DNA from: Escherichia coli
Lineage (GTDB): Bacteria > Pseudomonadota > Gammaproteobacteria > Enterobacterales > Enterobacteriaceae
Direction: 5' to 3' (one strand)
Assembly (NCBI RefSeq): GCF_030013595.1
Contig: NZ_CP122768.1
Length of the DNA: 64,000 nt
Part shown: piece after piece, positions 25,620-48,314 of the stretch
Layout of the letters: every line of letters begins with the position of its first letter
Numbering within the stretch: position 1 is the stretch's first letter
Translations under genes and position numbers: made by a program
The notes under the pieces: model-generated
What the model was told of the DNA's origin: nothing
Seen by the model: only the letters and a program-made list of their open reading frames with translations
Databases searched by the model: none

Positions 25620-25996
<377 letters not shown>

Positions 25997-45125: not shown

Positions 45126-46112
45126 TTAACCGAAGCGAACATCTCGTCCATGCGGTTCATCGAGATCCTGCCACGGACCAATTGAAATAATCCCCGTAGG
45201 GTTGATGGTCTTATGGCTGCGGAAGTAGTGATTACGGATGTGTTCGAAATTGACAGTTTCGGCAATCCCCGGCATCTGGTAGATATCGCGCAGGAAACCA
45301 TACAGGTTCAGGTAATCGCTGATGCGGTGCTTATCACACTTGAAGTGGGTGACATACACCGGATCAAAACGCACCAGCGTGGTCCACAGGCGAATATCGG
45401 CTTCGGTTAGCTGGTTGCCGGTCAGGTAACGATGCTGGCCTAAAATCTGCTCCAGTCGCGCCAGCGATTCAAACACTTTCACTACCGCCTCGTCGTAGGC
45501 TTGCTGGCTGGTGGCAAAACCGGCTTTATACACGCCATTGTTAACGGTGTCATAAATCCAGGCGTTAAGTTCGTCAATTTTCGGTTGCAGGGCTGGTGGG
45601 TAGTAATCACCAGCTTTCGCGCCCAGCGCATCAAACGCGGTATTGAACATGCGGATGATTTCTGCTGATTCGTTGCTGACGATGGTGTGGTTCTTTTTGT
45701 CCCACAGCACGGGAACAGTAACTCGTCCGCTGTAGTGTGGATCGGCGTGGAGATAAAGCTGATACAGAAATTCATGTTGATAGAGCGTATCTCCGGTTGC
45801 TCCCGGAAAACTGTCATCAAAGGTCCAGCCGTTTTCCAGCATCAGCGGGTTCACTACGGAAACGGAAATAAATGGTTCCAGTCCTTTGAGTTTACGCATG
45901 ATCAGCGTACGGTGCGCCCACGGGCAGGCGAGTGAAACATAGAGATGATAACGATCTTTCTCTGCGGTAAAACCGCCTATGCCAGTGGGGCCAGGAGTGC
46001 CATCGGCAGTGAGCCAGTTACGAAATGCGGAAGCTGAACGTTGAAATTTACCGCCGGTGGATTTGGTATCGTACCAGGTGTCATGCCAGACGCCGTCAAT
46101 CAGTTGACCCAT
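45126..46112 (-). CDS. yqjG: Glutathionyl-hydroquinone reductase YqjG (Xi-class GST, 328 aa)
   Basis: ORF track 45126..46133; start trimmed to MGQLIDGVWHDTWYD; GST fold with CPWA active-site motif. Confidence 0.85.
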   Translation of the reverse strand: MGQLIDGVWHDTWYDTKSTGGKFQRSASAFRNWLTADGTPGPTGIGGFTAEKDRYHLYVSLACPWAHRTLIMRKLKGLEPFISVSVVNPLMLENGWTFDDSFPGATGDTLYQHEFLYQLYLHADPHYSGRVTVPVLWDKKNHTIVSNESAEIIRMFNTAFDALGAKAGDYYPPALQPKIDELNAWIYDTVNNGVYKAGFATSQQAYDEAVVKVFESLARLEQILGQHRYLTGNQLTEADIRLWTTLVRFDPVYVTHFKCDKHRISDYLNLYGFLRDIYQMPGIAETVNFEHIRNHYFRSHKTINPTGIISIGPWQDLDEPHGRDVRFG

Positions 46113-46130
46113 ATTTCTCTCCTCCAATAG

Positions 46131-46159
46131 CAAAAACGAGGAGTTTCCTCCTCGTTTTT
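46131..46159 (-). terminator. Hairpin plus U-tract between yqjF and yqjG (possible partial terminator)
   Basis: aaaaacgaggag-tttc-ctcctcgtttttt palindrome flanked by A/T runs on both sides. Confidence 0.45.
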
Positions 46160-46181: not shown

Positions 46182-46574
46182 TTACCACTTTTTATTCAGC
46201 AGGCGGTCGATGCTATACGCGCCCGGACCGGTAATTGCCAGCAGCAGGAATCCGCCAGAAATTGTCAGGTTTTTCATGAACATCAGCGAGTTGACGCCTT
46301 CAGCAAAGTTGCTGTGAAATAAAAATGCCGTCAGCAGCGTAAAGCCCGCAGTAAACAGGGCTGTGGTGCGAGTCAGGAAACCAAACAGGATTGCCAGACC
46401 ACCACCAAACTCAAGCAGAATCACCAGCGGCAGCATAAAGCCTGGGACACCCATCGCTTCCATATATTGTTGGGTACCCGCGTAGCCAGTAATTTTTCCC
46501 CAGCCTGCGGTAATAAACAGAATCGGCATTAAAATGCGCGCTACCAGTACACCAACATCTTCTAATTTTTTCAT
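46182..46574 (-). CDS. yqjF: DoxX-family inner-membrane protein YqjF (130 aa)
   Basis: ORF track 46182..46664; start trimmed to MKKLEDVGVLVARILMPILF. Confidence 0.8.
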   Translation of the reverse strand: MKKLEDVGVLVARILMPILFITAGWGKITGYAGTQQYMEAMGVPGFMLPLVILLEFGGGLAILFGFLTRTTALFTAGFTLLTAFLFHSNFAEGVNSLMFMKNLTISGGFLLLAITGPGAYSIDRLLNKKW

Positions 46575-46760
46575 CATACTCTCCACTGCGCCACTCAGGC
46601 TGCTGATTGTTTTTTTGTGCAAGGGCGCGGTATTAGCGTCGTTGCTGTCGATGGAGAGAATCATAAACGTGGTGAATGATGATTGTTAGCAAGGAAAACT
46701 GTCAAAAATCTTCAAAAAATTTGAGGGATAAGGCCGGAATGGCTCCGGCCAGAGAGGTTA

Positions 46761-47060
46761 TTAACCGCGAAGCTGTTGCTGCTTGAGGGTCGTTTTAACC
46801 AGACGCCAGGCGCTCCATAAGCCAAAACCGCGTCTGGCCCAGCGGACCAGCATATTAGGATGGCGAATCGTCCAGATCGCCATCACGCTACTGCCAACCA
46901 GCGCCCAGGAGCGCAGACTTAGCAGCATATTCCAGCGACGATCGTAAGCGCCTGTTGCCTCCAGCCATTCACGACGACTGGCAGAAAGATCCAGCCGTTG
47001 TTGCTGGATCTGGCTAAGCAGTTGCGCCTTACGTCGTTCACGTTCGACTTTACTGCTCAC
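46761..47060 (-). CDS. yqjK: Small protein YqjK (99 aa), GTG start
   Basis: ORF track 46761..47162 uses an upstream ATG; a GTG at 47058-47060 preceded by GAGGAGG gives the 99-aa product (V/MSSKVERERRKAQLL...). Confidence 0.7.
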   Translation of the reverse strand: MSSKVERERRKAQLLSQIQQQRLDLSASRREWLEATGAYDRRWNMLLSLRSWALVGSSVMAIWTIRHPNMLVRWARRGFGLWSAWRLVKTTLKQQQLRG

Positions 47061-47454
47061 GGGACTCCTCCTCGAGCAGCTGCCGATCGTTTGCCAGCTC
47101 ATGGCGTGTATGGCGCAGCAAGGTGGATTTACGCGATTTACGTAACGTCCAGATACCGCCAATCAGTGCCAGTAGCAGCAACACCACGGTGGTGGCAATC
47201 ATCGCATTCAGGCGATATTGCGGATCAACCGCCCAAATAATCAGCACCATCAGGCTCATAAGACCAAATGCAGCGAAAAGCATCGTCAGGCCCAGCATCA
47301 GTAAAAGTTGAAAGAGATTCGCTTTTTCCTCTTCCAGCTCCACCACCGCCAGCCGCAGACGTGTTTCCACCATTTCAACCATGATGGAAACAATTCGCTG
47401 CCCGATGCCCAGAACGCTTTTACCGGGCCCTTGCGCGTGATGAGTGTCCGCCAT
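47050..47454 (-). CDS. yqjE: Inner-membrane protein YqjE (DUF1469, 134 aa)
   Basis: ORF track 47050..47523; start trimmed to MADTHHAQGPGKS. Confidence 0.8.
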   Translation of the reverse strand: MADTHHAQGPGKSVLGIGQRIVSIMVEMVETRLRLAVVELEEEKANLFQLLLMLGLTMLFAAFGLMSLMVLIIWAVDPQYRLNAMIATTVVLLLLALIGGIWTLRKSRKSTLLRHTRHELANDRQLLEEESREQ

Positions 47455-47456
47455 AA

Positions 47457-47762
47457 TTAACGACGCGACAGCAGAACGCCGAGCACTACACCGATTGCAG
47501 CGCCAATGCCCACGCCCGTCCATGGATTTTCACGCACATACTCATCGGCACGCGCTGCCGCAACACGGGTTTGTTTGGCGATGGCATCACCGGTTTCACC
47601 CAGGCGATAACGGCTCTGTTTCAGTGCCTGCTCCGCTTTGCTACGAATCTTACTCAACTCTTCTTTCGACTTCTCGCCAGATGAGCTAAGCACCTCTTCC
47701 AGCGTATCGGAAAGGGATTTCAACTCAGCACGCAGATGTTCCGTAGTGTGTTCTTTCGACAT
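47457..47762 (-). CDS. yqjD: Ribosome-associated membrane protein YqjD (ElaB family, 101 aa)
   Basis: ORF 47457..47762; C-terminal TM anchor. Confidence 0.85.
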   Translation of the reverse strand: MSKEHTTEHLRAELKSLSDTLEEVLSSSGEKSKEELSKIRSKAEQALKQSRYRLGETGDAIAKQTRVAAARADEYVRENPWTGVGIGAAIGVVLGVLLSRR

Positions 47763-47799
47763 AGTTTTCTCCAGGTGAGTAAGTAGTGACTATTGTGAG

Positions 47800-48168
47800 T
47801 TAGTAGTCGCGCGCTTCCAGCTTTTTCAGCTCTTCCTGCGCTTCTGCCAGTTTCCGTTCGCGTTTGGCAATCTTATCGGCATCGCCTTTTTGCTTCGCCT
47901 CGGTTAAATCTTGCTGGCGTTCCGCCACCTCATCTTTCTGCTTTGCGATTTTCTTCTGATGATCGGCACGTAGCTGGCTATCTGAACAGTTGGCCCGGAC
48001 TTCACTCAGGGCTTTATTCAGACCGTCAATACGATTCTGGTTTTGGTGTTTTTCGGCATAGCTGATCTCCTTAAGGATATTTTGCTCCTTTTCCTGACAC
48101 AGGGTAGTGGCATAACTACCGGCACTAAGAGCAAAAAGAGAAACAGCTAAAGCGATGCGGTATTTCAT
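47800..48168 (-). CDS. yqjC: Periplasmic protein YqjC (DUF1090, 122 aa)
   Basis: ORF track 47800..48183; start trimmed to MKYRIALAVSLFALSAGSYA (signal peptide). Confidence 0.8.
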   Translation of the reverse strand: MKYRIALAVSLFALSAGSYATTLCQEKEQNILKEISYAEKHQNQNRIDGLNKALSEVRANCSDSQLRADHQKKIAKQKDEVAERQQDLTEAKQKGDADKIAKRERKLAEAQEELKKLEARDY

Positions 48169-48314
48169 TCTTGAACCTTCCATTGTGATTCGGACCTATT
48201 ACAAAGGAACGATTGTCCAGACAACGAAGCGGTAGTGTTAACCACCGCCTCATTAATCATAGACAGTTACGGTGAAATCACCAAAGTCAGTGATATGTTT
48301 CGGATAACAGGAAG

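Follow-up and report, generated by a model that had tools for sequence, protein, structure and literature searches.

In the 64,000-nt stretch of Escherichia coli DNA analysed here (hereafter the window), yqjK is, with high confidence, translated from a GTG codon at 47060-47058 on the minus strand, yielding a 99-aa YqjK membrane protein. This start codon lies within the 3' end of yqjE, and we hold with moderate confidence that translation of the two genes is coupled in a functionally significant way. The reference annotation already gives this start, a product of 99 aa and an overlap of 11 nt with yqjE, so the gene model is known. The features of the locus are as follows.

46761 to 47060, minus strand: yqjK coding sequence, 99 codons plus a TAA stop, with a GTG start (RefSeq annotation, Pfam match)
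47058 to 47060, minus strand: GTG start codon of yqjK, with a start codon at the aligned position in 81 of 81 Enterobacteriaceae loci
47065 to 47073, minus strand: Shine-Dalgarno (SD) sequence GAGGAGGAG, within yqjE, where it codes for Glu-Glu-Glu; it is followed by TCCC (4 nt) and then by the GTG
47050 to 47454, minus strand: yqjE coding sequence, 134 aa, Phage_holin_3_6 family (RefSeq annotation and Pfam)
47050 to 47052, minus strand: TAA stop codon of yqjE, which begins 8 nt past the first base of the yqjK GTG
47050 to 47060, minus strand: yqjE/yqjK overlap of 11 nt (sequence, RefSeq and K-12)
47457 to 47762, minus strand: yqjD, for a DUF883 protein associated with ribosomes and the membrane; it precedes yqjE by 2 nt in the operon described for these genes
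47800 to 48168, minus strand: yqjC (RefSeq annotation of the genome with 100% identity)

Read in the yqjE frame, the minus-strand bases at the junction are ...CTG CTC GAG GAG GAG TCC CGT GAG CAG TAA, and the yqjK frame over the same 3' end reads GTG AGC AGT AAA, which places yqjK in the +1 frame relative to yqjE. The original prediction placed the yqjK start at this GTG, with a 99-aa product and an 11-nt overlap with the end of yqjE. All three are borne out: the frame opened by the GTG ends at 46761, the yqjE TAA lies at 47052-47050, and RefSeq and K-12 have the same start, the same product length and the same overlap. The choice of start codon is further backed by the strength of the SD sequence, the N-terminus of the protein family, and comparative and population data. 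The region 46700-47800 has matches in 5422 of the 5426 complete E. coli genomes, one of them at 100% identity, and the RefSeq/PGAP annotation of that genome gives the same GTG, a 99-aa YqjK and the 11-nt overlap. In the K-12 MG1655 annotation, yqjK is b3100 (NP_417571.1, 99 aa) at 3250077-3250376 and yqjE occupies 3249683-3250087. The gene model of the window strain is thus the same as that of the K-12 yqjK/yqjCDEK reference; the two strains differ in silent yqjE changes that leave the upstream yqjK frame open in the window. The yqjE-yqjK pair has also been catalogued at distance -11 among E. coli gene pairs (PMC10666635, supplement file 3).

A GAGGAGG SD sequence had been proposed ahead of the GTG. 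The heptamer is present at 47073-47067 and provides the strongest predicted pairing in the window. The 20 nt before the yqjK GTG form a predicted duplex of -11.8 kcal/mol with the 3' end of the 16S rRNA (ACCUCCUUA), and by this measure the site ranks 1 of 6097 when all ATG, GTG and TTG triplets on both strands of the window are compared. GAGGAGG itself is found three times in the window against 3.7 expected, without enrichment, and it is its placement rather than its occurrence that stands out. The Glu-Glu-Glu stretch under the SD sequence is written as three GAG codons, whereas GAG makes up 30% of the Glu codons in the long ORFs of the window (P ~0.027). Across the alignment of 81 junctions, GGAGGA is retained in most related loci. 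The yqjK GTG therefore has what defines an SD-led initiation site, a 16S-complementary sequence about 4-10 nt to its 5' side. As in canonical SD-led GTG initiation, the GGAGG core lies 4-6 nt 5' of the GTG; the yqjK SD sequence differs from the canonical case in being unusually strong and in being made of three GAG codons of yqjE.

The protein family points to the same start. The 99-aa form matches the Pfam YqjK family (PF13997) at residues 14-86, covering positions 1-73 of the 73-position profile (E=7e-25), and its score of 87.6 bits against a gathering cut-off of 28.1 places it in the family. A search of 1.8 billion cluster representatives returned 131 relatives of YqjK. The full-length relatives, at 26-50% identity, have 84-104 aa, and their residue ~1 aligns to residue ~1 of the query. 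In an alignment of 42 sequences almost all start no more than four residues from the GTG-encoded Met, and YqjK is comparable with the family members in both length and N-terminus. The conserved positions K11, L14, I18, Q21, R22 and L25 follow directly after the N-terminus. A later start was considered and rejected: the next in-frame start codon corresponds to Met45 and its use would delete this conserved N-terminal block. The gene order DUF883 (yqjD), Phage_holin_3_6 (yqjE) and YqjK is found both in the window and in the distant loci L082-L084, and the same neighbourhood is stated in bioRxiv 10.1101/2024.08.16.608256.

The yqjCDEK operon has been described previously, together with reports of further internal transcription starts, and YqjE and YqjK are described as inner-membrane proteins for which an interaction is predicted (PMC10746276). 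Expression of the operon depends on RpoS. The two genes are annotated on one strand and overlap. The yqjD stop is separated from the yqjE ATG by 2 nt (47455-47456, TAATTATG), and yqjD, yqjE and yqjK are therefore tightly packed; the ElaB/YqjD-YqjE COG pair is listed among conserved closely spaced pairs (PMC10666635, supplement file 5). Directly 3' of the yqjK stop lies a GC-rich inverted repeat (GGCCGGAGCCATTCCGGCC, 46732-46750, minus strand), followed by a T-run about 13 nt further. This repeat may be an atypical operon terminator, and it was not called by the terminator scan. Elsewhere in the window, the RNase P RNA gene rnpB (25620-25995, plus strand; Rfam RF00010, 317 bits) is the sole Rfam match at gathering level, and no tRNA genes were found in the window.

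Published start-site data bear on the neighbouring genes. N-terminomics data (PMC13245402 supplement) bear out the annotation of where YqjD and YqjE begin, with the N-terminal YqjE peptide MADTHHAQGPGK... placed at its annotated ATG, and have no YqjK entry. The supplements of INRI-seq, TRAINSPOTTER N-terminomics, tetracycline-inhibited profiling and the small-ORF Ribo-RET preprint contain no yqjK entry. YqjK is expected to be missing from N-terminomics because trypsin would leave it an N-terminal peptide, (M)SSK, of too few residues to be detected. The N-terminal Asp-N peptide expected from the GTG start is (M)SSKVERERRKAQLLSQIQQQRL, and a 113-aa form would begin with MSWQTIGSCSR in a strain with an open upstream frame.

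Such a form would arise from the first of two in-frame codons that lie 5' of the GTG.

47100 to 47102, minus strand: in-frame ATG, 14 codons 5' of the GTG, with a would-be product of 113 aa; not accepted as a start
47160 to 47162, minus strand: in-frame TTG that opens the 133-aa longest ORF; rejected as a start

The original prediction described a 133-aa ORF from an upstream ATG at 47160-47162. The ORF does have this length, but the codon at its head reads TTG, and the in-frame ATG at 47102-47100 had been overlooked. It is highly improbable that yqjK starts at either codon, even though the upstream frame is open in the window strain and the 113-aa version is carried by a database cluster of eight sequences (P0001) and used in some older entries. 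Neither codon has meaningful SD pairing (predicted +1.9 kcal/mol at ATG 47102 and -1.5 kcal/mol at TTG 47162), and members of the YqjK family lack the extension. A check of the upstream region in other species, which had been suggested as a test, found the ATG missing in most species examined and the frame closed in most: an in-frame stop lies 2-3 codons 5' of the yqjK start in 50 of 81 Enterobacteriaceae loci, and in 67 of the 81 the upstream part of the frame contains no start codon. Variation within E. coli argues in the same direction. In a four-strain alignment over 47030-47170 (the window, K-12 and two further strains), the seven differences 5' of the GTG are all silent in the yqjE frame and in that frame only, while in the yqjK frame the same differences would mean NPP>SLR, S>N and a Trp codon turned into a stop. 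The K-12 sequence continues from the upstream ATG with AGT TAG, and the open frame there has the GTG as its earliest start codon. At least 1185 of the 5426 complete E. coli genomes share this 71-nt K-12-type junction exactly, TAG included, and 2222 have the window-type junction. The extension is thus not under coding selection. These sequence comparisons already contradict the upstream starts; in the window strain, where the upstream frame is open, a minor extended YqjK form is strictly still conceivable.

The 113-aa and 133-aa frames are by-products of the yqjE 3' end read in another frame. A single silent Leu codon of yqjE at 47095-47099 (K-12 L085:1139-1143), CTG in the window and TTA in K-12, makes or abolishes the TAG in the yqjK frame and thereby changes the longest ORF between 133 and 99 aa while both proteins remain unchanged. 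The longest-ORF call reaches 133 aa in the window strain because its silent differences from K-12 leave the upstream frame open, and the 133-aa ORF is thus an accident of the silent yqjE alleles of this strain. Longest ORFs likewise exceed the RefSeq starts in yqjF (46182-46664, minus strand; 160 aa against 130 annotated), yqjC (47800-48183, minus strand; 127 aa against 122 annotated) and yqjG (45126-46133, minus strand; 335 aa from a TTG against 328 annotated), and these over-length calls are the same longest-ORF artefact as in yqjK. The longest-ORF track mis-calls yqjK wherever silent yqjE polymorphisms keep the upstream frame open, and the reference gene model is right.

The yqjE/yqjK junction was compared in 81 loci, comprising the window and 80 Enterobacteriaceae loci, by means of a scan of one genome per species and a query alignment of 14 closer sequences. 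The codon at the aligned start position is GTG in 40 loci, ATG in 38 and TTG in three. The yqjE stop overlaps the yqjK start by 4 nt in 46 loci, by 1 nt in 14, by 8 nt in 10 and by 11 nt in six, all of the latter from Escherichia; a 2-nt gap is found in four loci. The one remaining locus (L062) showed an apparent 32-nt overlap, which was dismissed as an artefact of the alignment running through the stop codon. The two genes thus overlap or abut in 80 of 81 loci. Three distant relatives, in which YqjK is 41%, 35% and 26% identical, have the same order of DUF883, holin-like and YqjK genes, and their junctions (ATGA, ATGAATAA and ATGACTAA) are 4- or 8-nt overlaps. Judged by these alignments, the start/stop overlap of yqjE and yqjK is conserved in kind.

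Relative to the common ...GGAGGATGACAAGCCGTGA form of the junction, Escherichia carries a one-base deletion (47061-47066, compared with L006-L081), with the effect that yqjE no longer stops at the ancestral TGA but is read on to the TAA inside yqjK. YqjE consequently ends in ...LLEEESREQ* instead of ...LLEDDKP*, and the overlap, ancestrally a 4-nt GTGA, has become one of 11 nt. Over the 81 junctions, aligned to 47028-47105 of the window, weak SD sequences go with an ATG start in 17 of 21 cases and strong ones with GTG or TTG in 39 of 60. This association between start codon and SD strength (Fisher p = 3e-4, with kinship ignored) may represent compensation between the two. A broader scenario is tentative and in our view rather doubtful: in Escherichia, the move of the yqjE stop from GTGA/ATGA to a TAA 8 nt inside yqjK, and the change from Glu-Asp-Asp to Glu-Glu-Glu that gave a stronger and closer SD sequence, would together re-tune the YqjE:YqjK ratio, within a compensation that would extend across the Enterobacteriaceae, weak SD sequences going with ATG and strong ones with GTG or TTG.

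From the position of the start codon, the SD sequence and the overlap, and from the conservation of all three, we infer that translation of yqjK is coupled to that of yqjE. The SD sequence in the last yqjE codons would direct yqjK initiation. With the yqjE stop located 8 nt beyond the GTG, ribosomes ending yqjE would cross and open the yqjK initiation region and finish beside it. YqjK synthesis would then most likely be coupled to YqjE synthesis, whether through termination-reinitiation, through exposure of a masked site, or through both. The idea is plausible and agrees with the start/stop overlap that is conserved between yqjE-like and yqjK-like genes. Short overlaps in E. coli show efficient termination-reinitiation that falls steeply with distance, tight coupling is general among them, and overlaps are over-represented between genes for subunits of complexes (PMC10666635). 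The yqjE-yqjK pair resembles the termination-reinitiation pairs of the ATGA/TAATG type (Huber et al. 2019, PMC6728339; 2023, PMC10666635) in that the genes are co-directional, the upstream stop overlaps the downstream start, the SD sequence lies inside the upstream gene, and the products are small membrane partners, predicted to interact and encoded in what has been described as one operon. It differs from the classic cases with demonstrated reinitiation, where the overlap is 4 or 1 nt, in its 11-nt overlap, over which a terminating ribosome would have to back up 8-11 nt; most relatives of yqjE-yqjK have the 4- or 1-nt form, like the classic cases.

The main rival of coupling is independent initiation from the strong SD sequence. 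According to this explanation the same GTG is used, free 30S subunits load at the SD sequence de novo, in part on a shorter mRNA whose 5' end lies within yqjE, and the overlap reflects genome compaction without a regulatory effect. The very strong predicted SD duplex would be enough for independent initiation, RNA-seq is reported to show transcription starting upstream of yqjK (PMC10746276), and the loci with a 2-nt gap have replaced the overlap altogether. Against it, overlap or near-abutment is retained across the Enterobacteriaceae loci and in the three distant relatives, the short overlaps of E. coli are as a rule tightly coupled (PMC10666635), and a search of the yqjE coding strand for sigma-70-like promoters gave no consensus match, so that a promoter of this type for yqjK within yqjE was rejected. 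A further point on the side of independent initiation concerns a predicted RNA structure at the junction, which as a mask over the start would have given site unmasking a physical basis.

47052 to 47080, minus strand: predicted RNA hairpin in which GCUGCUCG pairs with UGAGCAGU (minimum-free-energy fold of 47130-47000, z = -2.1)

The hairpin presents the SD sequence in its apical part, and its 8-bp stem takes in the UG of the GUG together with the two codons that follow; a ribosome translating yqjE would open the hairpin on its way through. For the 81 junctions RNAalifold gave no consensus structure, and when the E. coli hairpin is imposed on the 81-locus alignment, it pairs in 74% of cells with covariation not beyond that of shuffles. 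Because covariation support across the 81 loci is lacking, the role of the hairpin is uncertain; a conserved hairpin masking the start was rejected as an established element and is kept as an E. coli prediction. Weighing these points, we regard independent initiation as possible but unlikely.

If ribosomes shifted into the +1 frame towards the end of yqjE, possibly under the stimulus of the SD sequence, a YqjE-YqjK fusion would be made alongside the two separate products. The position of yqjK in the +1 frame, with an SD-like sequence ahead of the junction, would suit such an event, and one database protein (P0140) reads as a fusion of this kind: its 137 aa join the C-terminal half of YqjE to YqjK residues 2-52 (...LLEESPVSSKVER...). 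However, P0140 comes from one Logan contig of short reads, and its frame changes a second time at the C-terminal end; its likeliest origin is a sequencing or assembly error that shifted the frame within the GAG run, not a genuine fusion. The junction reads without a slippery or hungry-codon motif of the prfB type, and the frame relation of yqjE and yqjK differs among species (overlap classes 4/1 and 8/11), so a fusion is not a conserved feature. We consider such a frameshift extremely improbable.

The yqjK start in itself matters little beyond annotation hygiene. Coupled translation of yqjE and yqjK, if true, would support the view that YqjE and YqjK are partners produced in a constant ratio, and such a ratio would bear on the role of the genes that lie beside the ribosome-hibernation factor YqjD.
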